DNA of 64,000 nucleotides from Marinilabiliales bacterium (lineage in GTDB: Bacteria; Bacteroidota; Bacteroidia; Bacteroidales; ML635J-15): NCBI GenBank assembly GCA_002869385.1, contig PKTB01000007.1:80729-144728 (forward strand), in the 5' to 3' direction. Positions within the stretch are counted from its first letter, which is position 1. Every line of letters begins with the position of its first letter. The translations under genes were made by a program, and so were the position numbers. Positions 9,513 to 31,205 of this stretch are shown one piece after another. Under the pieces are notes generated by a model that did no database searches, was not told the DNA's origin, and saw only the letters and a list, made by a program, of their open reading frames with translations.

Positions 9513-10736
9513 ATGGAAAAAAGAACAACACTAAATTTATTGTTTTATGTTAGAAAAACAAGATTGCTAAAAAATGGGGAAGCTCCTGTTTATATGCGAA
9601 TTACAGTTAACGGAGTTAGAAAAGATTTAGCACTAAATCAAGGGATTAATCCAAAATTGTGGGATTCTGTTAAAGGAAAAGCAAGTGGTAATTCAAAAAA
9701 CGCTCGTTCATTAAATTTGTATTTTGAAAGCATTAGAGTGCAGTTGCGTCAACACATGATAAATATGAGAGAGGAAAACATTCCAATTACTGCATTGACA
9801 TTAAAAAATAGATTTCAGGGAAAATCAACAAACGCAAAATACCTTATTGAAATGTTTAAAGAACATAATGAGAATATTCAAAAGCTTTCAGGAATTGATT
9901 TTGCACCCAATACAATAAGTAAATACAAAACAACACTGTTTTACACACAACTTTTTCTAAAATTGAAGTACAAATGTGATGATATAAATATAAAAGATGT
10001 AAATCATACATTTTTAACCAACTATGAATATTATCTCAAAACTGAAAGAAAATGTTCCCACAATACCGCAATGCGATATATCAAAGATCTTAGAAAGATT
10101 GTTAGAATTGCTCTTTCAAATGGATGGATTGGTAAAGACCCATTTGCAAATTATAAAATAAAATTTCATAAGGTTGACAGAGGTTTTCTAACTGAAGATG
10201 AATTACATGCTATTATAAATAAAACATTTACCATAAATCGATTAGAACAAGTTAAAGATTGTTTTTTATTTTCTTGTTTTACCGGATTGGCACATATAGA
10301 TTTAAAAAGATTAACACCTCAACATATTTTTAAAGATTCAAATAATAAATTATGGCTAAAAGTAAATCGTAAGAAAACAAACAGCTTATGCAGTGTTCCA
10401 TTATTACCAGTTGCTTTACAATTGATAGAGAAATATGAAAACAATCCATATTGTGTTGAAAATAATTTGTTATTACCTGTTCTTTCCAATCAATCGATGA
10501 ACGCATATCTAAAAGAGATTGCAGATATTTGCGGAATAACAAAAAGGCTTTCAAGCCACTTGGCAAGACACACATTTGCCACAACTATTACTCTTAATAA
10601 TGATGTCCCAATAGAAACTGTTAGCAAAATGCTTGGGCATTCTTCAATTAGTGTCACAAAAATATATGCCAGACTCCTAGACAAAAAAGTTGGTCGGGAT
10701 ATGCAACATCTTAATGATAAATTTACTTTATCTTAA
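9513..10736 (+). CDS. Tyrosine site-specific integrase of the Bacteroidota mobile-element type, with an N-terminal arm-binding domain
   Basis: The protein is 407 aa. The N-terminus LNLLFYVRKTRLLKNGEAPVYMRITVNG is typical of Bacteroidota integrases. Catalytic motifs are HLARHTFATT and LGHSSISVTKIYARL. Confidence 0.85.
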   Translation: MEKRTTLNLLFYVRKTRLLKNGEAPVYMRITVNGVRKDLALNQGINPKLWDSVKGKASGNSKNARSLNLYFESIRVQLRQHMINMREENIPITALTLKNRFQGKSTNAKYLIEMFKEHNENIQKLSGIDFAPNTISKYKTTLFYTQLFLKLKYKCDDINIKDVNHTFLTNYEYYLKTERKCSHNTAMRYIKDLRKIVRIALSNGWIGKDPFANYKIKFHKVDRGFLTEDELHAIINKTFTINRLEQVKDCFLFSCFTGLAHIDLKRLTPQHIFKDSNNKLWLKVNRKKTNSLCSVPLLPVALQLIEKYENNPYCVENNLLLPVLSNQSMNAYLKEIADICGITKRLSSHLARHTFATTITLNNDVPIETVSKMLGHSSISVTKIYARLLDKKVGRDMQHLNDKFTLS

Positions 10737-10765
10737 AACTTGCTAACTATCTATTCAATATTGTA

Positions 10766-10786
10766 GGGACTTTATGTCCCTTTTAT
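10766..10786 (+). terminator. Hairpin plus T-tract after the integrase gene
   Basis: GGGAC-TTTAT-GTCCC is followed by TTTTATT. The 10-mer ACTTTATGTC recurs at 11664-11673 in the first array spacer. Confidence 0.5.
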
Positions 10787-10994
10787 TATAAAACTTTTTG
10801 TTAAGTTTAGTAGAACAAGATGTGTGTAATCGTTAGAACTATGCAAAGTCTTCATTTTGAAGACTTCTTAAGAGTCATGGCTACAACCTTTGTGCAAATT
10901 ACTACCGTTTCAAATGGTTATATAATATGCTATTGTGGGTACTTTGAAACCAGAATTATTTATGTCTGTATTCCTTGGCTATTATATCAATATT

Positions 10995-11462
10995 TTACTG
11001 AAGTGCAATTCCCATTTTCATTTTTTCCTCATTAGAAAAACTTATTTCTTTTTCACATTTATAATATGCAACTAGATAGCTAATTGAAGGATGGTAATAT
11101 GTCTTATCAATAGTCTTGTCATTGTTTTTAGTTTCTGCATAAATCAATTTTCCATTATTAATGTAATAGTTAGTCGTTTCATTTTTATTTTCGTCCCTTA
11201 ACTGTACAATTTTAATTTCTTTTTCTTTTTTAAATACACATTGATTTATATTGCTAGTTTGAATTTTACTATTTATCAAGTTATCTGTTTCACATATTAT
11301 TTTGCGATAAGTATACCTTTCATTTTGTATTTCTAACACAATGTTATCTATCAAATCTATCAACTGTTCTTTACTTTGACTTTGCAATTCTGTATTTTGC
11401 CCAAATACACTTGTTATTGGTGATACAAATATTACAAATGCAAATAAAAATAGCTTTTTCAT
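10995..11462 (-). CDS. Hypothetical secreted protein (array block 1)
   Basis: It has a signal peptide (MKKLFLFAFVIFVSPITSVFGQ). No family was recognised. Confidence 0.45.
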   Translation of the reverse strand: MKKLFLFAFVIFVSPITSVFGQNTELQSQSKEQLIDLIDNIVLEIQNERYTYRKIICETDNLINSKIQTSNINQCVFKKEKEIKIVQLRDENKNETTNYYINNGKLIYAETKNNDKTIDKTYYHPSISYLVAYYKCEKEISFSNEEKMKMGIALQ

Positions 11463-11761
11463 AGTTTATATAGTTTGGTCTTAGTATAATTAACGCAATT
11501 TTAGTTATATTATTATCTAGGAACGTAGATGCAATATATCACTTGTAATAGAAATTCAAACTCACTAGATTCTAATCACATTTTTATTTAACGATGAACG
11601 AAAGTTAGACGACTAAACGTTACGATCTTTCTCAAATGGTAAATAGGTGTTGTTCCTACTGGACACTTTATGTCTCAGTAAAAAATGAACTATCATTGGA
11701 ATTTTTTTGCTGATAATTGAATTGAGTCTAAATTGTCAAACTTCAAACTAAATAAATATTG

Positions 11762-12229
11762 CTATAAAGACTTTGGCCTATATTTTTTCAAATATTCATC
11801 TAGCTTTAAGATTAACTTTAAATTAAGTCTCTTAAGTTTTTTTTCGTTTTTCTCATTCTGTATTTTTTTTGAAATCGTGTGTATCTTATAAATTTCATTA
11901 TAAATTTCAGGATAATTTGTTCCACCAATATCGTAAGTTGTGTATGAATATGTGGAAGCATCATAAATTGCCATTTCTTGTCCAACGTACTCTGCATTAG
12001 AATGGATAAACCATAAAATGTTTGAACATTCCTTCTCAAGTTCTGAAAGGTGCTCAACGTCCTCAATATCAATAGTCTTATAATTATTATAATTCTCTGA
12101 TAAGAAAACATAAAATTTATTTAAATCTGTTTTAGAAATGAGAGTATCTTGATTAAGTGATTTTGCGTCATTTTGAGCAAAAAGACACAATGTTGACATT
12201 GTAAATAGTAGTGTTATTACATGTTTCAT
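11762..12229 (-). CDS. Hypothetical secreted protein (array block 2)
   Basis: It has a signal peptide (MKHVITLLFTMSTLCLFAQ). No family was recognised. Confidence 0.45.
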   Translation of the reverse strand: MKHVITLLFTMSTLCLFAQNDAKSLNQDTLISKTDLNKFYVFLSENYNNYKTIDIEDVEHLSELEKECSNILWFIHSNAEYVGQEMAIYDASTYSYTTYDIGGTNYPEIYNEIYKIHTISKKIQNEKNEKKLKRLNLKLILKLDEYLKKYRPKSL

Positions 12230-12359
12230 AATATATGTTTTTAGTTTTTTTATCTCTAATAAGGGTCTTCAATTTTCTTTACGTATTTTATTATTTATTG
12301 TTGGGTAGTTTCAAAGAAATAACATTTGGAATTGCAAAGCTTTTCAGCCGGGCTGTTTT

Positions 12360-12923
12360 TTATTCTTCCTGTTCTCTACTATCGAATAAGCTAATTGCTT
12401 TCAAATATTTTTCACCACCAGTTTTGGTCATATCGTATATGAATCCTTCTAGATCTGGGTGCTCAACATTTATCCACTCGACAAGAGAATCCCTTTTATT
12501 AACCCACACATTCCAGTCAACATTAACACTTTCTAATATTTCGATTTCATAAATTCTATTCTCTTTATAGAAAACCTTTTGTTTAGTTATCATTGGATTG
12601 TTACCAAGGAATTCGAAACGTTTTGAATAAGTTGATATAGTTAACAAAACATTATTTTCACTTGAAGATATTTCTAATATTTTTATTTCTGGATTAAATA
12701 CGGAATCCCATTGATAGTATTGATGGAACTCTTCTAAGGAATATGTTTTTTTATAGTCGCCATCAACGATTGAAATGCTATCAGAAAGGTATGGTATAAT
12801 ATATTCATATTTCTTTTTTGCATAGTCATTAAAATAATTTTCTGTAATTCTTATATAATCGCTTTGTTTACATGATATGAAGAATATTATTAGAATTATT
12901 AATATTTTATGATTTTTAATCAT
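12360..12923 (-). CDS. Hypothetical lipoprotein (array block 3)
   Basis: It has a signal peptide with a lipobox (FFISC). No family was recognised. Confidence 0.45.
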   Translation of the reverse strand: MIKNHKILIILIIFFISCKQSDYIRITENYFNDYAKKKYEYIIPYLSDSISIVDGDYKKTYSLEEFHQYYQWDSVFNPEIKILEISSSENNVLLTISTYSKRFEFLGNNPMITKQKVFYKENRIYEIEILESVNVDWNVWVNKRDSLVEWINVEHPDLEGFIYDMTKTGGEKYLKAISLFDSREQEE

Positions 12924-13145
12924 ACTATATGTGTTAGTTAGGTATTTGAAATCTGTTTTAGCGTCTATTTTAAATTCTGACTAATGGTAAAGTTAAGTCG
13001 CTGTATTATAATATTTTATTGTTTTCATAAAATGATGTAATTATTAATGTTTTTTCGCCCTTTTTCGTAAGCAAAAGAATTTAATAAGATTCGGATAAAT
13101 AGATAAATTAATTCACATCTATTGGGGAGAATCTTATGCGTTGAA

Positions 13146-13330
13146 TTGCCCATTACGGTTCGCTCACCTTTGCGATGTTTTGGTAAAGATAAATGAAATT
13201 TATCTTTTATCCAAAATTACGTAAAGGCGCCTGCCGTACTCCGTCCCTCTGAGACTACATACAACAGGCGCCGTAAGGTGAGCGAACCGTTGCTCCGCAG
13301 AGCGTAGGGCTTGCGGAGCAACGGTTTTGC
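13146..13330. repeat. Structured repeat, family A copy 1: nested long inverted repeats
   Basis: There are 15-bp perfect arms, CGGTTCGCTCACCTT (13156-13170) and AAGGTGAGCGAACCG (13275-13289). A 13-bp perfect hairpin has arms at 13287-13299 and 13312-13324. The inner IR is GGCGCCTG/CAGGCGCC. The core is about 85-90% identical to 15331-15490. Confidence 0.85.
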
Positions 13331-13414
13331 AATATGGAAAGTTGGGAATTTTAGAACGCGTTTGTATCCACAGATAGCTAAGCTAATTTGGAAACAAAAG
13401 TTGACGTAACCTAC

Positions 13415-14434
13415 TCAGCCCCAATTTTTTATATTGCATGTTAGCGGCTGGGTTTCATTCAATTTAACAATTGGGTCAACCTTATCCTTTGTTCCCTCAA
13501 TTTGCTCTGCTGCTGCTTTACAACCACCTTTACACTTATCATATTTTTCACAATCATTACAATAATCAGGAATACTTGAAATCCAGCTTAATGAATAGTC
13601 TGAATACAACATATCCTCAAATGAATCATTATAAATATTGCCTAAATTTATCATAGAATGATTGCATAACCTAAAATTACCTTTATAATCTACTGTAAGA
13701 GGTTTCATTTTGGAATCATCTGGACACAGTCCAAAGTGAATGTTTGAATAATCACTTGGATTTATAATACAATGTGGAGTACAAACATTTGAAGTAATTA
13801 TCAATCCATATTTTGCTGCAAGATTATCAATAATATTATATCCTTTTCGTAACTCATTGTGGTTTAAAGTTAACTCTTTATAATGTGGATTATTACTCAA
13901 GTTATATCTATTGACAATTATGGTATTAAGATTATTCTCTTTAAGGAATAAAAATGTGTCCTGTATGGTTGATAGGTTATATTTTGTAAGTATTACTGTT
14001 GGTATAATTCTTCCATTATTTGCTAGAATTAATTTAATATTCTTTAATACATTTTTAAGGTATCCCTCTTTGCCTGACAGGAAATCATAGACTTTTTGAT
14101 TTATTGAATTTAATGTTATTTGAAAATCAACTCCAAAATTTATTAACTCCTTGTATTTATTGTCATTATTGATTGTAGCATTCGTTATTACAGCAACCTT
14201 TGAACCATTTATTTTTGCATGTAATATACATTCAATTAATAAATCTGAAAGCAAAGGTTCGCCACCAGAAATTGTAAGCTGTTTAATTTTAGCTTTGCTA
14301 TACAATTTTTTAATTGTATTAATTGACCGAGAAGAATCTGAATTACCTAGAATAGTTGAATTATAACAATACTTGCATTTTAAATTGCAACTATGGGTAA
14401 TCTCAAAGTTTATATTAAAAAACTGGCTTTTCAT
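13415..14434 (-). CDS. Radical SAM enzyme with a C-terminal SPASM-type Cys cluster
   Basis: The CX3CX2C motif lies in ITHSCNLKCKYCYN. The C-terminal cluster is CNDCEKYDKCKGGCKAAA. Confidence 0.8.
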   Translation of the reverse strand: MKSQFFNINFEITHSCNLKCKYCYNSTILGNSDSSRSINTIKKLYSKAKIKQLTISGGEPLLSDLLIECILHAKINGSKVAVITNATINNDNKYKELINFGVDFQITLNSINQKVYDFLSGKEGYLKNVLKNIKLILANNGRIIPTVILTKYNLSTIQDTFLFLKENNLNTIIVNRYNLSNNPHYKELTLNHNELRKGYNIIDNLAAKYGLIITSNVCTPHCIINPSDYSNIHFGLCPDDSKMKPLTVDYKGNFRLCNHSMINLGNIYNDSFEDMLYSDYSLSWISSIPDYCNDCEKYDKCKGGCKAAAEQIEGTKDKVDPIVKLNETQPLTCNIKNWG

Positions 14435-15003
14435 TCTTTCGGGAGCCTAAAGTGAATTACAATAGTTTTATTCATAATTGTCTTCTTAAAATTTTTGCGG
14501 CCAGGTTTAAATGGTGGCATTAAACTAACTAATCTTAAAGCTTCTTCATCTAAACCGTATCCTTTGCTTTTAAGAATACTTGATTCCATAATATTCCCAT
14601 CCTCATCTATTGTTAAGTTTATAGCAACATTTCCAGATATTTTATTCTCTAAAGCAGATTCTGGATATATAATGTTTTCACGTACAAACTTATTTAGAGC
14701 AATCTGACCTCCTTTAAATCTTGGGTTTTTTTCCCAATTATCATTATCAACAATAACTACTTCATAACACATAGTTACTAAATCCTCTTCCATTTCAACA
14801 TCAATAGTCAGTGTGTAAATTTTACTTGAATCATTTGGGAAATCAACCTTTTGTGCATGTAATGTTTTATTACTTAGAAGTCCAATACCAACTATTATTT
14901 TGAGTTTTACAAGAAAAGGAATTCTAATTCTATCAGTAAGGCTGAATAAAATAGAATACACTAATGAATATATTGATATCTTAATGTTTCTTAGTTTTCT
15001 CAT
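14431..15003 (-). CDS. TonB C-terminal-domain protein (membrane anchored)
   Basis: An N-terminal hydrophobic segment is followed by a TonB_C-like region: PRFKGGQIALNKFVRENIIYPESALENKISGNVAINLTIDEDGNI...LMPPFKPG. An ATGA overlap couples it to the radical SAM gene. Confidence 0.65.
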   Translation of the reverse strand: MRKLRNIKISIYSLVYSILFSLTDRIRIPFLVKLKIIVGIGLLSNKTLHAQKVDFPNDSSKIYTLTIDVEMEEDLVTMCYEVVIVDNDNWEKNPRFKGGQIALNKFVRENIIYPESALENKISGNVAINLTIDEDGNIMESSILKSKGYGLDEEALRLVSLMPPFKPGRKNFKKTIMNKTIVIHFRLPKE

Positions 15004-15289
15004 TTTTCTTGTTTTCTCTAGTAATAAATATTTCTTTTTTCTTTAATCCAATAAGTGAAAATTCTAATTTAAATTCAACTAAAGAATCTGGAATAGAAAT
15101 CTCATAATATCCATTTTTATCTGAGATTGTCCCACCGATATATTTATCATTGTGAACGATTACTACATTTACTCCAATTAAACTTTCTCCGTAAACATCA
15201 TTAACATTTCCTTTTATAATATCCTTCTTGTTTTGACAGTATAAATTACCACAAATCAAAAGAATAAATATAATCAAAATCGTTTTCAT
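14981..15289 (-). CDS. Small secreted CarboxypepD_reg-like domain protein
   Basis: It has a signal peptide and then IKGNVNDVYGESLIGVNVVI...GTISDKNGYYEISIP. It overlaps the next gene by 23 nt. Confidence 0.5.
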   Translation of the reverse strand: MKTILIIFILLICGNLYCQNKKDIIKGNVNDVYGESLIGVNVVIVHNDKYIGGTISDKNGYYEISIPDSLVEFKLEFSLIGLKKKEIFITRENKKNEKTKKH

Positions 15290-15330
15290 TATCAGCTAAA
15301 TTTTTGGTATATTGGTGTTGTCATAACCTT

Positions 15331-15490
15331 GCCGCTAACTGTTCGCTCGCCTTGGCGATGTTTTGGTAAAGATAAATGAAATTTATCTTCTATCCAAAAT
15401 GTGGTAAAGGCGGCTGTTGTACGTAGTCCCAGAGGGACGGATTACGGCAGGCATCGTAAGGATTGCGGAGCAACGGTCTGCGGCATGAAA
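15331..15490. repeat. Structured repeat, family A copy 2
   Basis: It shares GTTCGCTC.CCTT.GCGATGTTTTGGTAAAGATAAATGAAATTTATCTT.TATCCAAAAT...GTAAAGGCG and TTGCGGAGCAACGG with copy 1. The 37-bp middle segment (15414-15450) is the reverse complement of 13231-13267. Confidence 0.85.
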
Positions 15491-15612
15491 CGTTGCGCAT
15501 TACAAAGCACAAACCTATCAAGCCAAGAAGCCGTTGATTAATTGCTATGTCGTTTAGATTTAGCACTATCTGCGCAATGTTTTATGACAGCTTGTTGTGC
15601 CCAGTATTTCAC

Positions 15613-16332
15613 TCAGAATCTGTAGTTTAATCCAATTCCTAGATTCAAATAGCTATAAGGTAAATTTCTGTCTGTATTCGTAAATTTATACATTAAAGTT
15701 CCTCCAAGTTTTACAATAATTTTTAATCTATGTCCTCCAAATCGTATAAATCCAACTGGCTCAAGCAAAATACTTTCGTCATGATAAGTCTTAAATGGTC
15801 CCGTTTCCGAAGTCCAGCCATAATAATTCCTGTCTGTTAGATTTGAATGAAGGTAACCAGCTTTTATTACAAATCCAGTCTCAAAGTTTGAAGAATTACT
15901 TGAAATCTTCCCGAAATTTGCTTGTCCAAAATATAGTTGATAATCACCTAATAGATTTCCTGGATTCACATCTTTGTAGGCGTTTCCGTATCCATAGCCA
16001 AATCCACCATAAAGTTCAAAAACCTTGCTGTATTCTTTATTCTTGTATAATCCAGTCGCTGCTTGAAAATAATATCTATCATCTGCTCCAATACTCCCAA
16101 ATCCTTGAATTGCTAACTTATCAGTCAGTCCGTATGAAACGGTCGCATTAGCAGAAGGAACAAGCGAAATTCCTGCATCAATTCTCAAATCGTTTTTTTC
16201 GCTAATCAACGGAATATCAGTTGTCATAGGATGATAAACTATACAACTTGACATCATAAACGAAATCAAGAGTCCAAAGATTATTAATCTATTTTTCATA
16301 GTTCGAAGGGTTTTTCTCATATTGCGCACCAT
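15613..16332 (-). CDS. Outer-membrane beta-barrel protein (array block 5)
   Basis: It has a signal peptide/lipobox and alternating aromatic/Gly-rich strands. It ends in the canonical OMP terminus ...GIGLNYRF, followed by TGA. Confidence 0.6.
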   Translation of the reverse strand: MVRNMRKTLRTMKNRLIIFGLLISFMMSSCIVYHPMTTDIPLISEKNDLRIDAGISLVPSANATVSYGLTDKLAIQGFGSIGADDRYYFQAATGLYKNKEYSKVFELYGGFGYGYGNAYKDVNPGNLLGDYQLYFGQANFGKISSNSSNFETGFVIKAGYLHSNLTDRNYYGWTSETGPFKTYHDESILLEPVGFIRFGGHRLKIIVKLGGTLMYKFTNTDRNLPYSYLNLGIGLNYRF

Positions 16333-16392
16333 CGATCTGCAGAGCGTAGGGATTGTCTTGTCCTGAAATATGACTGCAGGTTAAACATATGA

Positions 16393-16566
16393 TTAAGCTC
16401 TGTATTTAAACACCATATTTGGGGTTTTATACTTCAAAGATAAGTAAAATCTTTTATTATATATGTTGATAGCATTTTTTAAGCTAAAGAAGCATTGGTC
16501 AAAATATAATTCATCTTTCAATATACCGTTAACACGTTCATCAATATCATTTTCACAACTATGTTT
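16393..16566 (-). mobile_element. Remnant of the 3' end of an IS3-family (rve/DDE) transposase gene
   Basis: The translation is KHSCENDIDERVNGILKDELYFDQCFFSLKNAINIYNKRFYLSLKYKTPNMVFKYRA*. This matches the characteristic C-terminal ERxNGxLKxE...YNxxRxHxSLxYxTP region. No upstream part of the transposase is present. Confidence 0.55.
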
Positions 16567-16605
16567 CATCTGTCATACCTATTTTAATATCGCTTGTTAA
16601 TTCAT

Positions 16606-18051
16606 TTACAATTTCACTACTCTATAAATAGCTCTACTATTATTAGATAAAAGCTCCATAAAATAGACTCCTTTACTACCTACAATGTCAAGTATAATTG
16701 TGCTGTTATCAATAGAATATATGCTTTTAAATAATTTACCTGTAATGTCGCGCACATTAATTTTAATTATATTATTATCTGATTTTGATGTTATTGTTAT
16801 TTTTCCAGTAGTAGGATTAGGATAAAACTCTATGTTTTGACTAAATTTATAGTCTGCATAATTCTCAATTACTTTCATATCTGATAGATTCGGACGATAA
16901 TAATGCAATACATATTGCATTACTGCTGCTTTACCAACCGTGAAAGAGTTTTGACAATTCCCACTAGAATAATCCATATAGTTTTCAACCATATCTGGTA
17001 AGTCTATTCCGTAAATATCATCTAAGCAAGTGTTTCGAGTTTTATTGCAGTTGTACTGACTTGCAGCATCACTGCCAGGCGTATCATACACAAAATCATC
17101 AAAGCTACAATCCCCATCACCCCACGTATGGCGTAAACCTAAAAAATGTCCTATTTCATGCACAAGCATTTTCCCAGTTGTCACAAGTCAATTGTATACA
17201 TTATACGGTGAAGGAAACGAATTTGGATTATTGGCGCCGATATTTATGTAATGCAGTAATACCCCTTGCTCATATATGTTAACAACATCTAATAATGAAT
17301 CTGGCCAATTGTGATGGTCCATCGGAGGTGTTGATAATCCGAAATATACTAATTCTTTAAAATTGTCAAAGTTAGGCTCTAAGATTCTTAAATCTCCTAT
17401 CCAAACATTTAAGTAATTTTCAGTATCCCAAGGACTAATACCTCCAGAAGTATCTTGGGTAATACGGAATAGATTATAGAATAAACTATCATTAACCCAA
17501 TCAGTGATTTCTTGATCTTGACCAGATGAATAAGGCAAAATGCCACCGAAAAACTCAACATCTGAATATGTTCTCGTTATTCCTGTTGTTGGATTTCCAA
17601 ATGGATCAGTTTCTGCAAGTGCAAACTCTATTTTAGTATCACTGACAATGTTTTGAAATAAAGTTCTGGTGTTTGTTGTGTCAGTATTTGTTCGCCTATA
17701 ACAATCGTTTAAAACTTCAATTTGATTATGAATTACTGAGTCTGGAATATTTTCATCACTATTGTTATAAACTATGTGAAATACTACGGGAATGACATTT
17801 ATGCTATCAGTTGTTTTTGTAATATTTTGAATAGACAAAAGATTTTCAATATATTGCATTGATTGGTTTGATAAGTCTAAATACCCAGATTTCTTACTAT
17901 CTAAGTACTTCATGAAATCGTAGCTACCACAACCTATTGTGAAATTAGTTGATGGTTGTATATTATGCTTACTTTGCATAACTAATCCTTGAGCCTGGGC
18001 TTGGGTAAACAGTATCGTAAGAATAACAATTAAGAATCCATTATATTTCAT
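16606..18051 (-). CDS. M43-family (pappalysin/cytophagalysin-like) zinc metallopeptidase with T9SS CTD. It is interrupted by an in-frame TGA at 17188-17190.
   Basis: This is one 482-codon frame. The sequence ...SPYNVYN*LVTTGKMLVHEIGHFLGLRHTWGDGDC carries the HExxHxxGxxH motif. The tail is IEFYPNPTTGKITITS...GVYFMELL. Confidence 0.75.
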
Positions 18052-18342
18052 AAATAAGTATATTTTAAAGTTTTAAGAATGATACTTTGATTTTGTTATA
18101 CGTAATTTATTTTATATTGTTATGAAGCTTTAGCAATTGTTTGTTGAGTTGCTATCTGTTAGCCTGTTTGCCAACGATAAATTGTATATTTTCAGGGCGA
18201 TGGTACTTTCCTGTTAGACTGGGAGACCGCCAGGGCAGACAACAAACCTTAAAATAAGCACTTTCGACCGCCCTGAAATATGCAAAATGTTGTGCACTGG
18301 CTTTCATTATAATTTTATTACATCAATACTTTTGTCAATTAA

Positions 18343-19086
18343 TTACCTAAGCCTTTCAAGTTTCTGTGTGTTTTTAATCTCGTAATGCACTGGGATTACT
18401 ATTCGAGGTTTTATTTGTTGATTATTTGAGCGGCTTCATCTTCATTCAATGTCAGATTATCTCCACCGATTGCTATCAAAGTTAAATAAATGTCTGATAT
18501 TTTATCTATTTCGGGGATGTAATCTGTATCTCCTGTATGATAAATATTAAGTGAGTGGTTTACTGTTAAAGTAAAGCCAGTATTTTCTTTCCTCTTCGGG
18601 TGAGCTTTTAGTCAAAGGAATAAGCTTTTTGTATTGTAAGCAGGTACAGCCTCTATTTGAAAATCATTGAACGATAATGTGTCGTTTGGTTTTGCAACTA
18701 TTATTTCTGTTCCTGTTTTTTTTAGTGTTTTTAAGGCTCCTTTGGAACATTTAATCTTTGTGTCTAACTTTTTAAGCTTGGTAATATCATTCATTGAAAG
18801 GTGTTCAGGATGACTGTAGGTTATCAGGATATAGTCAGCTTTATCAGCATTTGTGCCCACTTCAACGGGATCAATGTATACAACCAAGCTGTCTGTTTTT
18901 AGCTGAAAACTTGACGGAATAAAACCAGATTTACTAATTCTTATTGCCCCCCCAAGTTTTTAAAATAACATTGTTTTCAAGTTCGACTGTCATATGAAGC
19001 GGACTTCTTTTCTCACTAATTGATAATTTAATCATATTACAACTTTGAATTATTAAATAAACTATTGCAATTAAGATGTTTTTCAT
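18343..19086 (-). pseudogene. MBL-fold metallo-hydrolase lipoprotein gene with two frameshifts and one in-frame TGA
   Basis: The signal peptide MKNILIAIVYLIIQSC is followed by a frame change at the C7/G7 run (18947-18953). The middle segment contains YIDPVEV...ILITYSHPEHL. TGA lies at 18612-18614, and the same frame then continues with LKAHPKRKENTGF...IYHTGDTDY...LIAIGG. A second frame change near 18410-18416 precedes ...KPRIVIPVHYEI. Confidence 0.6.
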
Positions 19087-19104
19087 TGTTATTTCGACTT
19101 GTTT

Positions 19105-19262
19105 TGCCTGTGTACGGTCGCAGCTATGTACCGTGCGGGACAGTAGTCCCGAAACCACGGTCGTATTAGCTGCGATACCAAATTTTTTTATTTTTTTTTA
19201 TTTTCTCATTTTACTAAAGCCAAAGTATAAAACTTGGCGGTGATTCGGAAAAGCGACTGCCT
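19105..19262. repeat. Structured repeat, family B copy 1
   Basis: A nested hairpin spans 19116-19175: GGTCGCAGCTA..ACCGTG-CGGGAC-AGTA-GTCCCG-AAAC-CACGGT..TAGCTGCGA. It is followed by an AT-rich linker and then TAAAGCCAAAGTATAAAACTTGGCGGTGATTCGGAAAAGCGACTGCC (19215-19261). Confidence 0.7.
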
Positions 19263-19336
19263 TGATTTAACTTAAATCCCTCGAATGGTATAAAGGTGTC
19301 ATGAAGTGCTTGCTTTGTATTATTTATAACTTAGTA

Positions 19337-19663
19337 TTAATCCTTGCTAATCTCCAAAAAATTAAAATAATCTTTAAAGTGAACCATTAATACTTCTACA
19401 AATCGCCCTAAAATATATCCTTGAATCTCTTCAGCTGGTTCTTCGTTCTTTTTCCACCATTTTACTACAAATGACACATAATCATCGTAAACAAATGGCT
19501 TAAGCATTGATTTTTCATCCCATTGCTCTGGTATATGTGAATACAAAACTTCTTTTTTATCATTATGTACTATACGCCAAGTTTTTAAATTGTCATCTTT
19601 AATAGCTTTATTAATAGCATTAACCAATTTTTGAGGATTTTTTGAGTTTGCTTTTATTTTCAT
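19337..19663 (-). CDS. Hypothetical small cytoplasmic protein (array block 8)
   Basis: The ORF is 108 aa with no signal peptide. No family was recognised. Confidence 0.4.
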   Translation of the reverse strand: MKIKANSKNPQKLVNAINKAIKDDNLKTWRIVHNDKKEVLYSHIPEQWDEKSMLKPFVYDDYVSFVVKWWKKNEEPAEEIQGYILGRFVEVLMVHFKDYFNFLEISKD

Positions 19664-19863
19664 AATTATTTATTTTTATTCTATAAATACCAAATTATTA
19701 ATTTGGTGAGGCAGAGTTTTATTGTATTAATATTTTTTCAGTACTATCTTTACAATATCTATCACTTTTTAAAATATCATTTTCCCAAACAGTGATGAGA
19801 TTCGACCTGTCGAATCCGCACAAACCCAGCCATGTCTTATACCTATGTTAGAGTTTCTTTTTT

Positions 19864-20868
19864 TTATCTTGTTGATATAAAATCATATAAAAAAGTTGAA
19901 GTCCTTCTTAGTAATTCTAATTGTTCTTTTGATATCTTGTCTGGATGAAAATGCATTACTCCATTTCTGATTTCTCTAATGCAATGTAAATTTTTCGTAA
20001 AATCAGTTTTGTCAAATGGCAGTTTTAACAACTTCCACATTTCAGGATTTTCAATTACAATTAAATATTCCCCAAAGGTTAAATCACTTAATGAAGAAAT
20101 CTCTCTATCATAATTGTCAATCGTAACTAACTTTAGTAAGTCTTCTAATATAATTTTGTTATCTAAAATTAACCGAATAAAATTCTCTATCTGTTCAAGT
20201 AAGATAAAGGGTTCAACTTGTTCAATAAATTCTTCGTTTAAATCGAAAGGTGTTACTGGTCCTTTTATTAAATTGTTTTTGTCTTTTACGAAAACTATTC
20301 CAAAATTAATTACTTCTTTAATGGCATCGAATAGAGGAGTATTTTCACTTAATACTTTATAGCTTCTGGAAATGAAATCTTTCACAGTATCCGATTCTTT
20401 GTTAGCAATTAGTCCTTTTGCTATTGATTGCCATGTAATTATCCCAATTATTTCACGTTCATTATTCATAATGGGCAATTGTGAAAAATCATTTTGCCAC
20501 ATAAGATGATAAGCTTTTTCCAACTTTGCATCTCTCTTTACTGAAACTGGAGTTTTCGAGGCTGCTTCTAGTAGTGAGAGTCTACTTATTGGATCAAATG
20601 TTTCTAACTCTTCGTCGCAGGTTCCTTTTGCAATTTTGGCTTTGTCTTTTTCCTTAAGTTCAATTTGTTCATCTATCCAACCACTTTGATAATTTGGGAC
20701 AACTATCATTTTTTCTCTTTGAAGATATTCATTAATTCTCCAAACATTTCCACTTGTTCTTTTTTCATACCAATCAAATAACCAAATAAAATCTCGTTTA
20801 GACATTTTCTTTGATTTTCCTGATTTTTTAATCTCTTTTACTAGTTCTATAAATTCTTTTCTAGGCAT
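19864..20868 (-). CDS. CBS-domain protein with a C-terminal HEPN (Swt1-like, Rx4H) domain
   Basis: The central part is a CBS-pair-like region (AYHLMWQNDFSQLPIMNNEREIIGIITWQSI...LFDAIKEVINFGIVFVKDKNNLIKGPVTPFDL). The C-terminal motif is IREIRNGVMHFH (R-x4-H). Confidence 0.6.
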   Translation of the reverse strand: MPRKEFIELVKEIKKSGKSKKMSKRDFIWLFDWYEKRTSGNVWRINEYLQREKMIVVPNYQSGWIDEQIELKEKDKAKIAKGTCDEELETFDPISRLSLLEAASKTPVSVKRDAKLEKAYHLMWQNDFSQLPIMNNEREIIGIITWQSIAKGLIANKESDTVKDFISRSYKVLSENTPLFDAIKEVINFGIVFVKDKNNLIKGPVTPFDLNEEFIEQVEPFILLEQIENFIRLILDNKIILEDLLKLVTIDNYDREISSLSDLTFGEYLIVIENPEMWKLLKLPFDKTDFTKNLHCIREIRNGVMHFHPDKISKEQLELLRRTSTFLYDFISTR

Positions 20869-20887
20869 TTTAGTTTTTTTTTAATGA

Positions 20888-20990
20888 ACGCTCACGGTCG
20901 CAACTAATTTACTATTTTGATTTTAATTTATTCATTCGTAAAAGCCAAATTGTGAATTTGGCGGTGGTTCGGAAATGCGACTGCCGAACT
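20888..20990. repeat. Structured repeat, family B copy 2
   Basis: CTCACGGTCGCAACTA is followed by an AT-rich linker and then TAAAAGCCAAATTGTGAATTTGGCGGTGGTTCGGAAATGCGACTGCCGAAC (20939-20988). This matches 19215-19261. Confidence 0.7.
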
Positions 20991-21025
20991 TTTACCTATA
21001 TACCCCGCATTGTATATAGGTGTTG

Positions 21026-22408
21026 TTATAGCCAGTTCTTTTTTATATTCTTATACATATCCCAGATTATCCATTCTAATAATATTTTATTATGCGTACA
21101 CATTCTTTTATCTAATGACCATAAAGAATCACTTGAAATTTTAGCTTGATAAGCACAACCTCCACCACAAATTGCAATAGCTTCGCAATTTGTGCATTCT
21201 GGCATATTTAAAGGATAACGTTTAGACCACTCTTTAAACGATGAGTCAATTGAGATTTTTTCAGCATCCCATAATTCACTCTAATAGTATTCCTTATTGT
21301 AAAGAAATCCTTGACACGGGCCAATTAGACCATCAGGAGTAATAACGATTTGATTACCAATGGCACCACAATCTTTTTGATACAATTTCTTCTCAACAAA
21401 TGGTTTTAATTTGCGCATAATACGGTCTTCATACAAACCATTCTTTCTTAGAAATTCAAAGGTTTCAAGTAAACTTTTAGTTGCAATTGCAATATCAACA
21501 GATTGAGGATTAACAGTTTTAGGAAAGTCTATTAAGAAGTTGAAACCAAAACTATTAAAATTGAACTCAGTCATTAAATGTTTTGTTTGATCTTTTAGTG
21601 TTCTATAATTGTGTTTTCAAATAGTAACTGAAGCACTAATGTTTGAGATGCCTGCATCTCTTAGATTCTTAACACTTTTCTGAATTGATGAATAAGTACC
21701 TTTACCGCTAATGAATGGTCTAACAGAATCAGTAATGTCTTTGTTACCATCAATTGAAATTGATATTTGAACATTATGCTTCTCTAGAAAACTTGCATCT
21801 TCTTTTGTAATATCGGATGCATTCGTAATTATTGATAATTCAACATCATTTTTTAAAATTTCTCTCGCATAGGATATTCCTTTTTTTAAAGTTTTTTTAT
21901 TAAGAAATGGTTCACCTCCATAAAAGATTATCCTTCTATTTTTTTTTGAAATTTTTGAGAAAAGGTCAATAGATTTAGAAACTAAGTCTTCAGTCATAAA
22001 AACTTTTTTCGCATCTTCAGGAATAGAATTCTCAATATAACAATACTTACATTTCAAATTACAACTATCTGTAACAATTAGATACATAATCTGAATATCA
22101 ATGTTGGAGTGATTTTTAATATAAGCAGAATCTATCCGTTCGCGATTATTATACGTCGTAATAATTCCATTCTGAAAGAGAGACTCAAATAGTGATAGAA
22201 TTTTATTCTTATTTAAATCTGGGTTAACATGACAGAAATCTTCAAGAGTTTTATGCTTTTTTAAATTATTGAAAGTCGCAAATGATGATTTGTTTAAATA
22301 AACGACATTCATGTAATATGCATGATAAAGTGCATAAATATTTTCATTTTCATAAACGTGAAGGTATTTAGACTCCTTAATTTCTGTTGTAAAAGTTAAT
22401 TTATTCAT
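21026..22408 (-). CDS. Radical SAM/SPASM peptide-maturase-like enzyme with an N-terminal extension that may be an RRE. It is interrupted by TGA 21617-21619 and TAG 21281-21283.
   Basis: This is one 461-codon frame. The rSAM motif is VTDSCNLKCKYCYI. After the TGA the frame continues (KHNYRTLKDQTKHLMTEFNF...PDGLIGPCQGF). After the TAG it continues with the SPASM motif PECTNCEAIAICGGGCAYQA. Confidence 0.8.
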
Positions 22409-22643
22409 TTATTTTAATTATAATATCAGAAGACTCGACTTCTTTCTGTGGAATATAACAAGTACAAACATTCCCAGGACAGAAACATGCTGTTGTACAA
22501 ACACATGAAGGTTTCACGCAAACATTACCAGCACAAACACCTATACATGTTCCTACTGAATTATCACTTGAACCAATTGAATCAATAGATTGTTTTCGAT
22601 CAGAATCTGTAGGTGCATTAAATTTAATTTCTTGGTTTTTCAT
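22401..22643 (-). CDS. Cys-rich RiPP precursor-like peptide (80 aa)
   Basis: A polar leader is followed by GTCIGVCAGNVCVKPSCVCTTACFCPGNVCTCY, which has 9 Cys in about 30 residues. Its 3' end overlaps the maturase start by 8 nt. Confidence 0.6.
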   Translation of the reverse strand: MKNQEIKFNAPTDSDRKQSIDSIGSSDNSVGTCIGVCAGNVCVKPSCVCTTACFCPGNVCTCYIPQKEVESSDIIIKINE

Positions 22644-22649
22644 AATTTA

Positions 22650-23177
22650 TTATTTTATTGGAACAATTTCATTTTTCCATCGATTATATAATTTTTCAAA
22701 ATTTGACGCTATCTCTATATTAAGTTCTTTTCTTCTTAATTCAATGTATGGCTTTAAAGTTACAAAAGTATCTGTTGCAACCACAATTAGTGAATCAGAA
22801 GCAATTTGGTTATCATAGTATTTATTATTAATTCCTAGGGAAAGATTATCAAAGTATGCAACAATTCTTAAAATATTGGCTCTGAAAGTTGGGTTTTCTA
22901 AAAGCTTTTTAAGTTTCTGTTCAGAAATTGAATCTGTTCCAGAGCCTTTAGGAACTAGTTCACTTAATACTTTTCTATTGATTCCTTTCAATTCAGTTGT
23001 ATATATATCTATATATTGAAAAGTTGCATTTTTTCGATTCCAATCTGTTTGTTCAGCCATTTGTACTGTAGAAAACTTTAATTGTTTTATTAATAAGTAA
23101 ACTTGGTAAAACGCAAAAGGTATTCCGACTAGAAGTGCGACAACTTCAATATATGTTTTAATACATTCAATATTCAT
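22650..23177 (-). CDS. Hypothetical protein with an N-terminal transmembrane helix. It is the first gene of the RiPP block.
   Basis: The TM segment is VVALLVGIPFAFYQVYLLI. The remainder is a helical soluble domain. No family was recognised. Confidence 0.4.
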   Translation of the reverse strand: MNIECIKTYIEVVALLVGIPFAFYQVYLLIKQLKFSTVQMAEQTDWNRKNATFQYIDIYTTELKGINRKVLSELVPKGSGTDSISEQKLKKLLENPTFRANILRIVAYFDNLSLGINNKYYDNQIASDSLIVVATDTFVTLKPYIELRRKELNIEIASNFEKLYNRWKNEIVPIK

Positions 23178-23510
23178 ATTTTGATGATTTTATTACGTCT
23201 TTGTTTGAATTACAACTAACCGTAAAGTTAATTGTTAATTTATAGTTTCTTAACATTTTTAAATTATATCCACTTTTTCCTCAATTTACCATATCGTTAG
23301 CGAAAATATTCATCGATATTTGGGTCGAAGTGGGATTGGCTATAACTGTCTCGTGTATGAGCAGTAGCAGATTTCAATCCACTAAACTGTCAGATAGCAC
23401 CGAACTTTGATTTATAGTATTTTATTTCAAAATAGCACTGAACCCGCTATTGCTTATACACATTGTTGTATGCCCGTGCTTTTTCATTTTCTTTTCTGTC
23501 AGCGTTGGGG

Positions 23511-23577
23511 CAGCCATACTCTTTGGCAAGTTTTGGCTTGTGAGGCTGCTTTGAGCGACTTGCCAATGAGTATGGAT
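23511..23577. repeat. Long imperfect palindrome directly 3' of the TIR/caspase block
   Basis: CCATACTCTTTGGCAAGT and ACTTGCCAATGAGTATGG pair at 17 of 18 positions around a 26-nt loop. The palindrome lies about 15 nt after the stop of 23593-23964. Confidence 0.8.
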
Positions 23578-23592
23578 GCGAAGGGTTGGGAA

Positions 23593-23964
23593 TTAAAGTG
23601 AATCAATAAATTCCTTGATATTATCCCAAGTCCAAACTCTTGTGTAAACTCCTTCTAAGTCAGTTCTGTCATCATAATAAGCCCAAATTCCTCTAACTTT
23701 TTTTCCTTCTTCTCTTGCACATTGAATTTCCCATTTCTGACCGCTTGAAGTCAATGAATTCTTACTCACCAAAGCAATAACTCCATCAGAGCGCTTAATT
23801 CTAGTCCTTACTCGTTCTTTCCATTCTTTGTCATACGGTTGTTTTACTGACATGTCAATGTACTCGAATGGTGATTTCGTGTTTAAAGATTGACCTTTTA
23901 AAAGGTCTCTTTGTTTCTCATCTTCAATTGCAAATGCAATAAAAACTACTTTTTTATCTGCCAT
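23593..23964 (-). CDS. TIR-like (DUF1863 / ThsB-like) domain protein, soluble
   Basis: Motifs are KVVFIAFAIEDEKQRDLL...YIDMSVKQPYD...IALVSKNSLTSSGQKWEIQCAREEG. It is a paralog of 24956-25474. Confidence 0.7.
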   Translation of the reverse strand: MADKKVVFIAFAIEDEKQRDLLKGQSLNTKSPFEYIDMSVKQPYDKEWKERVRTRIKRSDGVIALVSKNSLTSSGQKWEIQCAREEGKKVRGIWAYYDDRTDLEGVYTRVWTWDNIKEFIDSL

Positions 23965-23982
23965 GATATTTTTATTTATGGT

Positions 23983-24954
23983 TTAAATTCTTTTGTCTTT
24001 TACTAGTCGCCAATAATGATAACCCAATGCTGTAAGTCTGCAAGTTTTTGAATGCATTGCTGCGAAATACATATGTTGTTCATCAACTGGAACAACTAAA
24101 CCCACACTTGCTAACTTTTGTAAATCCTTGAAGACCGAAACATTTTTCTCATTTGCATAAGGTTCTGTAAACTCATGCTCAATTGCTGGATCATTTGTGA
24201 ACTCAAAGGATGGGTCAAGTTGAAACTGTTCTTCAGGTGATGTAAAGTATTGATTTAATCGTCTAAGAATTTCAGGCGAAACCTGTGGTGAAACTGTCCT
24301 TAATGATGTAAAGCGAGTAATGTTTGTTTTAAATACTGGTCTTTGATCCCATGGACCAAGAGCTTGGTCAATGTAGGAATAAATGCTGCCTGGTGTAATA
24401 TGACCTCTCAAATCTGCTGCTCCGCCTTGCAATGCATCCAGCAAAAGATTCGTAAAAACACCATGTCCGTTAACTTCCATAGAAGCTTCGTCTTCCTTAC
24501 TCGCTGTTAGAATCGAGACGCCTTCTCCGATTTGAGCGTTTTGATTACCACCTAATTTCGGTGTACCAAATGCACCTGAATGGCAACAATCAAGTATGAT
24601 TACACGGTTTTTGGCTTTTGATTCATTTGCAATGTTCAAGATTTCATCCATTGAAATACCTTCATCATTCGCTTTGAAGTCTGGAGTAACGATTATTCCT
24701 CCTCCAGTATCATCAAAAAAGCCATGACCAGAGAAATAGAATAAAGCAGTTTCACAATCTCCAGCGAATAATTCTTTGATGTGTCCTTTTAATTCTCCTT
24801 TTGTTGGAACATCTGTTAGTAAACGAACGTCAAAATTTGGAGAACCATCTCCATTAGTTTCTAATGTATTTCCAAAAGCAGAAGCATCATTGATGCAGCC
24901 AAATAATTCTGATTTTGGGTAATTATTGATACCGACAACAAGTGCTTTTCTCAT
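23983..24954 (-). CDS. Caspase/metacaspase-fold (C14) cysteine peptidase with a C-terminal extension
   Basis: Motifs are KALVVGINNY...LINDA-type CINDASAF, the catalytic His in FYFSGHG, and the catalytic Cys in VIILDCCHSGAFG. The C-terminal domain of about 150 aa was not recognised. Confidence 0.85.
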   Translation of the reverse strand: MRKALVVGINNYPKSELFGCINDASAFGNTLETNGDGSPNFDVRLLTDVPTKGELKGHIKELFAGDCETALFYFSGHGFFDDTGGGIIVTPDFKANDEGISMDEILNIANESKAKNRVIILDCCHSGAFGTPKLGGNQNAQIGEGVSILTASKEDEASMEVNGHGVFTNLLLDALQGGAADLRGHITPGSIYSYIDQALGPWDQRPVFKTNITRFTSLRTVSPQVSPEILRRLNQYFTSPEEQFQLDPSFEFTNDPAIEHEFTEPYANEKNVSVFKDLQKLASVGLVVPVDEQHMYFAAMHSKTCRLTALGYHYWRLVKDKRI

Positions 24955-24955
24955 A

Positions 24956-25474
24956 TTATATTTTTTTAATGACCTTAGATAAATTATCCCAAGACCAAGT
25001 GATTACTTTTTTGCCTCTCAATTCTGGCGGAATTGCTCCTTTATTATTCTTTTTGATATGCATTCCGATTACTGGCAATCCTTCTTCCTTAGCACATTTT
25101 ATTTCCCATCTTGCACCGCTTGAATGCCAAGTGTTTTTGCTCAAAAGGACTATCATCCCGTCACAGGATTTGATTTTGGTACGGCATTTCTGTTTCCAAA
25201 TTTTCTCGTCCCATGGCTGTTTTACTGACATATCTACAAATGAGAAAGGCGACCGTTCATTTTTGGCTTGTTGCACCAAATAATCTCTGTATTGCTCATC
25301 TTCAATAGCAAAGCTGATAAAGATGCGTTTCTTTATTTCCTTACCTGAATCTTCTTCATCTTCAAAAAGAGCTTTCAAAAGAAGAGCAACTGCACCCGCA
25401 CCAATTATTACTGGCCACATATTCGACTTTTTTTTATTGTACTCATTCATATTAATTCTTTTCAGCGTTGGCAA
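24956..25474 (-). CDS. TIR-like (DUF1863 / ThsB-like) domain protein with an N-terminal transmembrane helix
   Basis: The TM segment is MWPVIIGAGAVALLLKALF. It is followed by RIFISFAIEDEQYRDYL...FVDMSVKQPWD...IVLLSKNTWHSSGARWEIKCAKEEG. The start may be the internal ATG near 25450. Confidence 0.7.
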   Translation of the reverse strand: MPTLKRINMNEYNKKKSNMWPVIIGAGAVALLLKALFEDEEDSGKEIKKRIFISFAIEDEQYRDYLVQQAKNERSPFSFVDMSVKQPWDEKIWKQKCRTKIKSCDGMIVLLSKNTWHSSGARWEIKCAKEEGLPVIGMHIKKNNKGAIPPELRGKKVITWSWDNLSKVIKKI

Positions 25475-26387
25475 AAAATAGCTCTTTTGGTTTTTTAGCG
25501 TTTGCCTTTGTGTCGGCAGAAACCAAATGTGCTATTTGTGCGGTCGTCTTTTTCAGCATGGCATACAACTAGTTTATGCCCGGATTTTAATTCTCCATAA
25601 TTATTAATAAATAACTTCACCTTAATTCTTGGTTATATCTATTCATTAAATAAAAACTCTGATTTCACACAAATCTGTTAAATCATTATAAATCCTATTT
25701 TTCTGCATCATTTTTTTGTAAATAAATAGAAATTATAACATTCACTTTCTTTCGCTCGAATTTACATTTTTTATTTCTGATAGAAGAATAAATCTTATAC
25801 AAAATTAACGTGGAATTGAAAAATCATAGTTTTATCCAGTTGAAATAAGGGTAAACCCTTAGCTTTTTTATAAAGAATTTGAAATTTAACAATAAAGTAG
25901 ACTAGAATTTATTTATTGTGTACTTAAATTTTAAACATCTAAAGAGACTTTCCAAACCACCAATTCCCAAAAGTTCTAATCAAATAAGATTACTGCTTAT
26001 TGTATCTGCGAAGCTGTAAAGCAAAAACAACTGCTACAACAGAAGATATCCCGAATTTTCAATTCGAGGATGAAAATAGATATTCCTAAGAGTTCAGAAA
26101 TGTTTTTTTTTATCCCTCCGGGAAGGTTGTGGTATTTCTGAACACTAAGGACTATCTCTGTTGAATAGCCGCTGTTTATGGCTTTAAGTTCAGCTGCAGA
26201 ACAAACGCAGAAAACTAATTAGATGTATAAACTTAAAAATAAATATTATGTGTAAAAACTGGAAAATATCAGAATTGAAAAGAAACGAACACCGCTTCAA
26301 ATCTATTATCTGTATAAACCATTTTGCAAGTTTTAACACATCTAAAATAGAAAATCAATTATTTATTAATCTTTAAATTTTATTATT

Positions 26388-26825: not shown

Positions 26826-26831
26826 ATTTTT

Positions 26832-31114: not shown

Positions 31115-31205
31115 TCTATTTTTAATTAGATCATTGTAATTTTATTTAAAATAACAAAATTTACAATATTATTATGGTTTTATCTTATTCTATTTTAAAA
31201 TTTAA

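Follow-up and report, generated by a model that had tools for sequence, protein, structure and literature searches.

A 64-kb stretch of DNA from a Marinilabiliales bacterium (contig PKTB01000007.1, positions 80,729 to 144,728; hereafter the window) carries a 15.2-kb run of unrelated minus-strand genes, the array, beside a tyrosine integrase gene (int), and the initial annotation took this run for an integron-like or CALIN-like cassette array (CALIN, cluster of attC sites lacking an integron integrase). That was found to be a false lead: the array is not a non-IntI integron and most likely represents the cargo and defence hotspot of an integrative island, an arrangement of a known kind, situated between int and a conserved non-coding element (CNE). 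The borders, the backbone, the variable content of the interval among relatives and the lack of integron features were directly observed, and the island holding the interval probably spans 42.8 kb (~9254-52097) between two copies of a 16-bp direct repeat. The comparison also delineated a widespread, undescribed family of Bacteroidota integrative elements, mostly located beside tRNA-Ser genes and marked by a backbone of int, palindromic CNE, p145, an ArdC-like gene and p113, together with one preferred cargo place.

A variable interval in a probable integrative island

Related elements were gathered by anchoring on the CNE and on p145, the 145-aa gene that follows it, which yielded 9 genome loci and 56 metagenome loci, and the full backbone was present in more than 60 related loci. 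In a paralogous island of the same metagenome (L007/L008), homology to the window ran through int, stopped at 10724 and resumed at 25949, from where a non-coding stretch (86% identity), the 145-aa gene, the ArdC-like gene, a ~110-aa gene, Fib_succ_major and the Tc/RHS toxin cluster were all matched; its int-CNE interval measured ~0.7-0.8 kb and held one minus-strand ORF (open reading frame). Among the other loci, the int stop codon lay 100-320 bp from the CNE in L003, L011, L013, L017, L019, L021, L023-30, L050 and L064, and cargo of 1.7-3.5 kb lay there in L055, L020 and L010 (3.5 kb in L010) versus 15.2 kb in the window, while long minus-strand runs with no integrase within 10 kb preceded the CNE in L040, L042, L032, L054 and L058. 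In the int-bounded loci ~30 cargo ORFs were antisense to int and 1 was not.

The content of the interval changed as well as its length, and the more distant elements differed from the window by entire cargo loads. No clear homologue of the window's cargo genes was found in the other loci, the sole match being a weak partial one to TonB_C in L057 (40% over 77 residues), and the cargo there consisted of a WYL regulator with an N6-methylase, Ig proteins secreted by the type IX secretion system (T9SS), and WG-repeat or Fib_succ proteins; the WYL and N6-methylase genes of L042 are suggestive of defence. The int-side edge of the cargo was not fixed: in the window it falls past the int terminator, in L007 ahead of that terminator, and in L010 it coincides with the int stop codon. 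The edge just before the CNE was also considered as the plain end of an element, and this was rejected because the ORFs upstream of it were cargo-like rather than core host genes and no att core lay between int and the CNE. The arrangement resembles the hotspots of SXT/R391 integrative and conjugative elements (bioRxiv 10.1101/2020.12.16.423150), in which unrelated modules, many of them anti-phage, are swapped at a fixed backbone position, and further comparisons are offered by defence systems on integrated elements (PMC10201445) and by pipolins (PMC11551731). Unlike in those hotspots, the cargo is placed between the integrase and a palindromic non-coding element and has a near-uniform direction, and defence genes are mixed with secreted-protein genes and with genes resembling those for ribosomally synthesized and post-translationally modified peptides (RiPPs). 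In Bacteroidales/Marinilabiliales metagenomes the int-CNE interval can serve as a place to look for new defence systems and peptide-modification clusters.

The island ends were located through an exact 16-bp direct repeat, TTCGACTACGCTCAGG, which was present at 9254-9269 and 52082-52097 and was never recovered in shuffled sequences. The left half of a composite host repeat lies beside the 9254 copy and the right half occupies 52082-52260, with intact copies of the whole repeat at 640-860 and 58150-58330; from these halves at the island ends it follows that a 42.8-kb segment was probably inserted into one such composite repeat. The start of int lies 243 bp inside the left end, and in the closest relative, L019 (integrase 79% identical), TTCGGCTACGCTCAGG occurs at the same 258-bp distance from its int. 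In 11 more distant relatives (L005, L007, L008, L013, L017, L020, L026, L028, L050, L055 and L064) int is preceded on its own strand, at a distance of ~240 bp, by a tRNA-Ser or tRNA-Arg gene, most often tRNA-Ser-GCT; no tRNA gene was detected within the 64-kb window. An att-core repeat that splits host sequence, int at one end and a tRNA site preference in relatives together make up the standard layout of an integrative island. The dispersed composite host repeat itself was seen in the regions 640-860, 9150-9273, 52040-52260, 58150-58330 and 62800-62960, and is built of a 35-nt hairpin unit (GGTACCACACGAT...ATCGTGCGGTAGC), AGTAACTCGCGCG and GC-rich 12- or 23-bp tandem repeats (CCCCTTCGACTA, GCTCAGGGACCG).

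The integrase scored 38.2 bits against the integron integrase model TIGR02249 (NCBIfam; cutoff 265), over its C-terminal catalytic stretch only, and 32 bits against NF011946 (435), and it has an arm-binding domain, so the earlier reading that it is not IntI was upheld; its homologues number in the thousands in Bacteroidales/Marinilabiliales. The architecture of the IntCTnDOT subgroup has been described (PMC8138268), and the enzyme is assignable to this subgroup by its domain architecture and Bacteroidota homologues rather than by phylogeny. It is the island's own arm-domain integration enzyme, located at attL, and its relatives adjoin tRNA genes. As in tRNA/att islands of the CTnDOT/NBU1 type (PMC8138268), an arm/core/catalytic integrase at one end, a short direct repeat and inner cargo are combined, and relatives of this island adjoin tRNA-Ser or tRNA-Arg genes on their 3′ side. 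In contrast to those islands, this copy and L019 target a dispersed host repeat instead of a tRNA gene, and the window showed no genes for a relaxase, for mating-pair functions or for an excisionase.

Spacer structures and the integron question

At the level of genes the initial annotation was accurate. All credible ORFs at 10956-25474 were on the minus strand, the gene content it listed was agreed upon by Pfam, NCBIfam and PADLOC, and its idea of modular, horizontally acquired, unrelated blocks tied to the neighbouring integrase was right. The co-orientation is not unique to the array, since every large ORF from 29.5 to 64 kb is also on the minus strand. The classification as an integron-like or CALIN-like cassette array did not hold: by the definitions of integron, In0 and CALIN (PMC4889954), the region is none of the three, there being no IntI, no attC architecture and no attI/Pc (cassette promoter) arrangement. 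An approximate scan of our own for RYYYAAC...GTTRRRY pairs spaced 50-150 nt apart returned 1 pair per strand (2 in total versus 1.6 expected), none of them with inner pairing, so that the R′′/R′ boxes already missed in the initial annotation are absent at any level above chance. Nor was an attI/Pc region next to int found with cassettes read outward from it; int (+) and the cargo (-) converge, and int has its own terminator. The likeness to integrons and CALINs lies in co-oriented unrelated genes beside a tyrosine recombinase and in foldable gene ends (PMC4889954), and the differences are that many units here are operons with long spacers and that the end structures do not form one family. Chromosomal integrons are also known to store defence systems (bioRxiv 10.1101/2024.07.02.601686).

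Folding of the spacers bore out part of the palindromes that had been listed. Four of the six folded far better than shuffled sequences (z -5 to -9.5), namely those within 13150-13295 (z -9.3), 13283-13328 (z -9.5), 19110-19180 (z -5.2) and 23505-23582 (z -6.1), and the other two (18191-18277 and 19820-19837) no better than shuffles (z -1.4 each). A GC-corrected sliding fold gave 5 strong windows in the 15.2-kb array versus 4 in the other 48.8 kb, and most structured elements were positioned just 3′ of a transcription unit. A simple terminator scan detected few canonical terminators. The structures did not belong to one family: family A folds as a three-way junction with a separate GC hairpin, and 19110-19180 and 23505-23582 are hairpins unrelated to it and to each other. 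Several cargo blocks are multi-gene operons, and we infer that the modules are expressed from signals of their own and that many end in a stem-loop. The Bacteroidota -7 motif TAnnTTTG was confined to 4 sites on the minus strand between genes, at distances of 250-430 nt from the start codons, and gave no support for per-block promoters.

Both repeat families that had been proposed proved real. Family A, located after the radical SAM (rSAM) gene and the gene for an outer membrane protein (OMP)-like product, comprises 13146-13278 and 15329-15461 (79% identity) and a partial copy at 16324-16355. A 44-nt segment of it is inverted between the otherwise co-linear copies (13229-13272 versus 15409-15452, 91% complementary), and its hairpin relies on G-T pairs and thus folds well on just one strand per copy; segment flipping of this sort is common in small palindromes. 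Family B comprises 19189-19299 and 20913-21023 (75-78% identity), the second copy overlapping the rSAM stop codon, with a possible degenerate third copy at ~11575-11653; its copies begin at a stop codon or within 40 nt of one and end in a short weak terminator-like stem followed by T's on the gene strand. In the window each family has 2-3 copies, all within the array, and none was found in ~80 related loci; in exact searches neither GTDB representative genomes nor metagenome (JGI) contigs contained the 33-nt core of family A, and viral contigs did not contain its 27-nt sub-core. At the Rfam gathering score nothing in the whole window matched, and the hits at E≤5 on 9-27 kb were chance-level only. 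Both families resemble REP/BIME (repetitive extragenic palindromic/bacterial interspersed mosaic) elements or MITEs (miniature inverted-repeat transposable elements) in being GC-rich, strongly folding and placed at 3′ ends of transcription units, one with a flipped hairpin, and differ from them in the 2-3 copies seen, confined to the array. Other GC-rich palindromic and tandem repeats exist in this genome's contig outside the array.

The short motifs fared less well. The boundary motif that had been assigned to seven sites was loose and mostly attributable to chance, and of it only GGTAWAWWGGTGTTGT recurred above expectation, with 4 sites, all on the plus strand, versus 0.44 expected for a pattern picked post hoc. 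Three of these close family B copies, namely the two clear ones and the possible degenerate third, and the remaining site, at 15306, is a 16-nt match that stands by itself beside family A copy 2. By our own estimate, chance alone would yield 10-12-nt matches such as CCTGAAATATG in 15 kb. TGTTGT was mildly enriched in spacers (7/12).

Possible routes of cargo accretion

The following course of events would account for the hotspot. An arm-domain island would have inserted into the dispersed host repeat and duplicated its 16-bp core; accessory DNA would then accumulate in the short int-CNE interval, almost always transcribed towards int, and would enter or be swapped via recombination between related elements, either by tandem integration followed by deletion or by crossovers in the conserved flanks. 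The stem-loops and families A and B would act as 3′-end, terminator, insulator or REP/MITE-like elements, and not as recombination sites. We infer both the route of cargo entry and exchange, which stays provisional, and the terminator or insulator role of the spacer structures from three kinds of trace and from the positions described above. The L020 cargo contains a 120-nt copy of the 5′ part of the CNE joined to the 47 C-terminal codons of a second integrase gene; in L010, L058, L039 and L034 the cargo is bracketed by 53-200-nt direct repeats of backbone sequence; and in the window a 7.6-kb segment with NsnC/NsnB, a STAND NTPase and unknown genes, not far from the right end of the island, lies between ~270-nt direct repeats (43964-44243 and 51562-51840, 72-76% identity). 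All three fit tandem integration plus deletion and flank crossovers. The bracketed 7.6-kb segment could mark an additional cargo site or the former end of an element. The non-coding sequence of the 270-nt repeat was also encountered in L003 (2999-3238) and L025 (961-1200).

Several observations weigh against this reading. At the CNE side, the variable edge falls at the same nucleotide in at least eight loci with unrelated upstream DNA (L033, L035, L039, L041, L042, L049, L058 and L034; left edge CCCCCAAACTTACCCCC), equivalent to ~25949 in the window, which random recombination does not readily explain; partial second pre-CNE copies in L058 and L034 have in common one right junction and the sequence beyond it. 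In the window's own array neither scars of int or the CNE nor a direct repeat around the whole array turned up, and no repeat above chance level linked the region upstream of int with the CNE edge; the accretion route is therefore extrapolated from the relatives. Family A brackets the rSAM operon and family B brackets DS-11 and p108, as site-specific insertion would also leave them. The T-runs of the hairpins 13287-13324 and 19116-19175 are on the strand opposite to the cargo genes, and such hairpins are therefore not simple terminators for minus-strand genes. Finally, Pfam scans of the window's large ORFs detected neither relaxase nor mating-pair domains, and any mobility beyond integration would be conjectural.

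Part of this evidence would be accommodated if the array were the remains of several small islands that integrated serially at the same int/att site and lost their own integrases, families A and B being old attL/attR-like ends. The tandem-plus-deletion scar in L020, the 7.6-kb defence segment between 270-nt repeats, the A and B brackets in the array and a GC content that ranges from 26 to 37% between cargo blocks all speak for such a history. It is nonetheless unlikely, since tblastn of 120 integrase homologues and of the backbone proteins returned only noise and no integrase remnants in the array, extra copies of the 16-bp core were absent from the island with 4 mismatches allowed, no tRNA-end repeats were found within 10 kb downstream of int in the relatives, and eleven modules would need many scarless independent deletions.

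The fixed CNE-side edge is the reason why a small probability is retained for the int-CNE interval being a directional docking site, at which blocks would be inserted site-specifically at the CNE edge (~25949) with the block-end repeats as partners; this is improbable, and if true would make the docking site a functional integron analogue built on a CTnDOT-type integrative element in Bacteroidota. Slightly more doubtful still is an integron-like cassette platform without IntI, in which a recombinase, be it the arm-domain integrase or one with its gene elsewhere, docks circular blocks at that fixed site and families A, B and the hairpins serve as attC. The nearly one-directional cargo, the sharp CNE-side junction common to at least eight loci, the direct-repeat-flanked cargo of L010, L058, L039 and L034, the strong foldable structure at the end of most blocks and the bracketing of one block each by A and B as direct repeats would suit it. 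Against this, the end structures have no common sequence or shape and no R′′/R′-like boxes, the int-side junction is not fixed and the duplicated pre-CNE copies end at two different points, the integrase fragment in the L020 scar points to whole-element tandems rather than cassettes, the DS-11 homologues elsewhere lack family B and the related loci lack both families, and the integrase clearly serves island integration at tRNA genes. An ordinary chromosomal region with replication-strand bias, normal terminators or REP repeats and an unrelated integrase neighbour can be dismissed as hardly credible, for minus-strand genes do extend to 64 kb, the cumulative GC skew falls over the span and other GC-rich intergenic repeats lie outside the array, but the 16-bp direct repeat splits a host repeat, the backbone is common to more than 60 loci in other organisms with the interval variable among them, and the cargo orientation tracks the backbone and not the genome. 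An arm-domain integrative island with a cargo hotspot remains the preferred reading.

Cargo modules, conserved palindrome and sequence versions

In all likelihood the cargo interval is made of eleven independent modules, of which two are anti-phage systems and two are radical-SAM peptide clusters, with secreted or T9SS proteins among the rest; their coordinates are collected below with those of the other features.

Features of the island in the window (positions are those of the whole stretch; a dot marks features given without strand)
Feature	Position	Strand	Remarks
attL core candidate, left copy of TTCGACTACGCTCAGG	9254..9269	+	closes left half (9150-9269) of the composite host repeat
Tyrosine integrase, Arm-DNA-bind_5 + SAM_5 + Phage_integrase	9513..10736	+	Pfam; IntCTnDOT-type architecture
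Terminator-like hairpin after int, AGGGACTTTATGTCCCT then T-run	10765..10781	+	z -4.6; kept in relatives without cargo
Cargo hotspot (array), 15.2 kb	10725..25948	-	related elements lack it or differ here
Three small genes with signal-peptide or lipoprotein-like N-termini	10956-11462, 11762-12229, 12360-12923	-	no Pfam family
Family A copy 1	13146..13328	.	16-bp outer stem around two hairpins, then 13-bp GC hairpin (13287-13324), TTTT on + strand
Operon of CarbopepD_reg-like, TonB_C and radical SAM/SPASM genes	13415..15289	-	Pfam; ORFs overlap or abut
Family A copy 2, degenerate	15329..15477	.	32-nt deletion; internal 44-nt hairpin segment inverted relative to copy 1
OMP-like protein (15613-16227), 58-aa ORF, M43 peptidase with T9SS sorting domain (16606-18051)	15613..18051	-	
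Metallo-beta-lactamase-fold (MBL) remnant, genuine pseudogene	18612..19158	-	no intact gene in public contig versions
GC-rich hairpin, then T-run on + strand	19110..19180	.	z -5.2
Family B copy 1	19189..19299	.	directly 3′ of the 108-aa gene; terminates in GGTATAAAGGTGT
108-aa gene (p108) and single-gene defence system DS-11 (CBS protein, 19864-20868)	19337..20868	-	
RiPP-like cluster: DUF4760 protein, 80-aa Cys-rich peptide, radical SAM	21026..23177	-	
Imperfect palindrome	23505..23582	.	z -6.1; 11 nt downstream of a TIR stop codon
TIR, caspase (C14), TIR module	23593..25474	-	ThsB-like and caspase matches in PADLOC
Non-coding 80-nt stretch, cargo side of hotspot edge	25466..25547	.	82% identity with locus L009
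CNE, right hotspot border	25949..26387	+	homology with relatives; no Rfam match
Backbone module: p145 (26388-26825), ArdC-like anti-restriction/metallopeptidase (27023-27961, true sequence), p113 (28498-28839)	26388..28839	+	
Rest of island: Fib_succ_major protein, SpvB/RHS Tc-toxin cluster, NsnC/NsnB, STAND NTPase	29567..51840	-	
attR core candidate, right copy of TTCGACTACGCTCAGG	52082..52097	+	runs on into right half of the composite host repeat

The CBS protein was identified as DS11_antiphage (NCBIfam NF053863) with 359 bits versus a curated cutoff of 260. Its homologues elsewhere (L079-L082) stand alone in unrelated contexts, their DNA homology to the window ends at most 8 nt from the ORF, and neither family B, p108 nor the hotspot context was present around any of them. 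The TIR-caspase-TIR module resembles, at the domain level, type IV Thoeris, which is made up of TIR and caspase (bioRxiv 10.1101/2024.10.24.620036). The three small proteins next to int are putatively secreted, as read from their N-terminal sequences.

The CNE contains an interrupted palindrome (26000-26204) with a ~49 bp stem, whose arms are ATAGATATTCCTAAGNGTTCAGAA / TCTGAACACTAAGGACTATC, and an apical insert that varies in length from 37 to 355 nt. When 15 loci were compared, 96.9% of cells were paired versus ~37% when the partners were slid, 23 pairs showed compensatory double changes, and the observed score was reached by 0 of 500 shuffles. G-U intermediates were almost absent, and therefore pairing at the DNA level rather than the RNA level is indicated. 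In more than 60 Bacteroidota loci the CNE immediately precedes p145 and the ArdC-like gene. By comparison with plasmid leading regions and with integrative elements that hold only an oriT, it is a candidate origin of transfer (oriT) or single-strand promoter. Plasmid leading regions carry single-stranded DNA promoters (PMC11541004), and iOriT elements are integrative elements that have an oriT alone with anti-restriction genes nearby (bioRxiv 10.64898/2026.01.13.699239); the island has in common with the latter an integrase, a long conserved palindrome with an ArdC-like gene immediately behind it, and no relaxase gene close by. The CNE may be an oriT or a Frpo-like promoter, for which neither a nick site nor a relaxase partner nor promoter boxes could be recognized. 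A palindrome upstream of an anti-restriction gene offers a testable candidate for either function. To our knowledge, no comparable palindromic origin of transfer or single-strand promoter has been described in Bacteroidota.

The window belongs to a metagenome contig (ENA, JGI, NCBI) that is assigned to a Marinilabiliales metagenome-assembled genome. Comparison with public versions of the contig revealed ~1.7-2 differing sites per kb. Relative to four of these (L001/L074 and L083 from ENA; L077 and L002 from Logan), the window had only C>A or G>T changes, as at 7029, 17190, 21282, 21619 and 27080. The JGI copy (L075) showed a few extra differences in the reverse direction (A>C, T>G), with 28 mismatches where 26 were counted otherwise in that range, and so is not quite identical to the ENA version. 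The window-only pattern looks like oxidative-damage-type error or added noise and not like evolution; none of these substitutions falls within the repeats discussed above, including families A and B. Stop codons created by them split the M43, C10 and rSAM genes and truncated the ArdC-like ORF, and RHS was also hit. In the public sequence the split or truncated genes are intact, with the M43 peptidase at 481 aa and the radical SAM protein of the RiPP-like cluster at 460 aa. Recoded stop codons, considered for the split genes, were dropped, the stops being due to the window-only substitutions; likewise, the apparent M43, C10, rSAM and ArdC-like pseudogenes are artefacts, and the MBL remnant is the only true pseudogene.

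The only other strain compared (ERZ794998; L076, L085) was identical to the main strain over 4978-14848 with the same gene order, and L076 was 5.4% diverged from L074 over 2142-4848, which covers an S41 peptidase and neighbouring genes and suggests a recombination tract just left of the island.

Beyond the backbone module, the Fib_succ and Tc part of the island was syntenic with L007/L008, and the SpvB/RHS (Tc-toxin-like) cluster at 31590-42585 is one 3279-aa ORF in the public sequence. The coding DNA of these paralogous islands was just ~70% identical to that of the window, and a 157-nt non-coding stretch upstream of Fib_succ_major (29408-29564) was 90% identical to L007 14925-15081 and L008 12615-12771; this stretch is strongly structured (sliding fold z -5.2) and holds a 28-nt inverted repeat.

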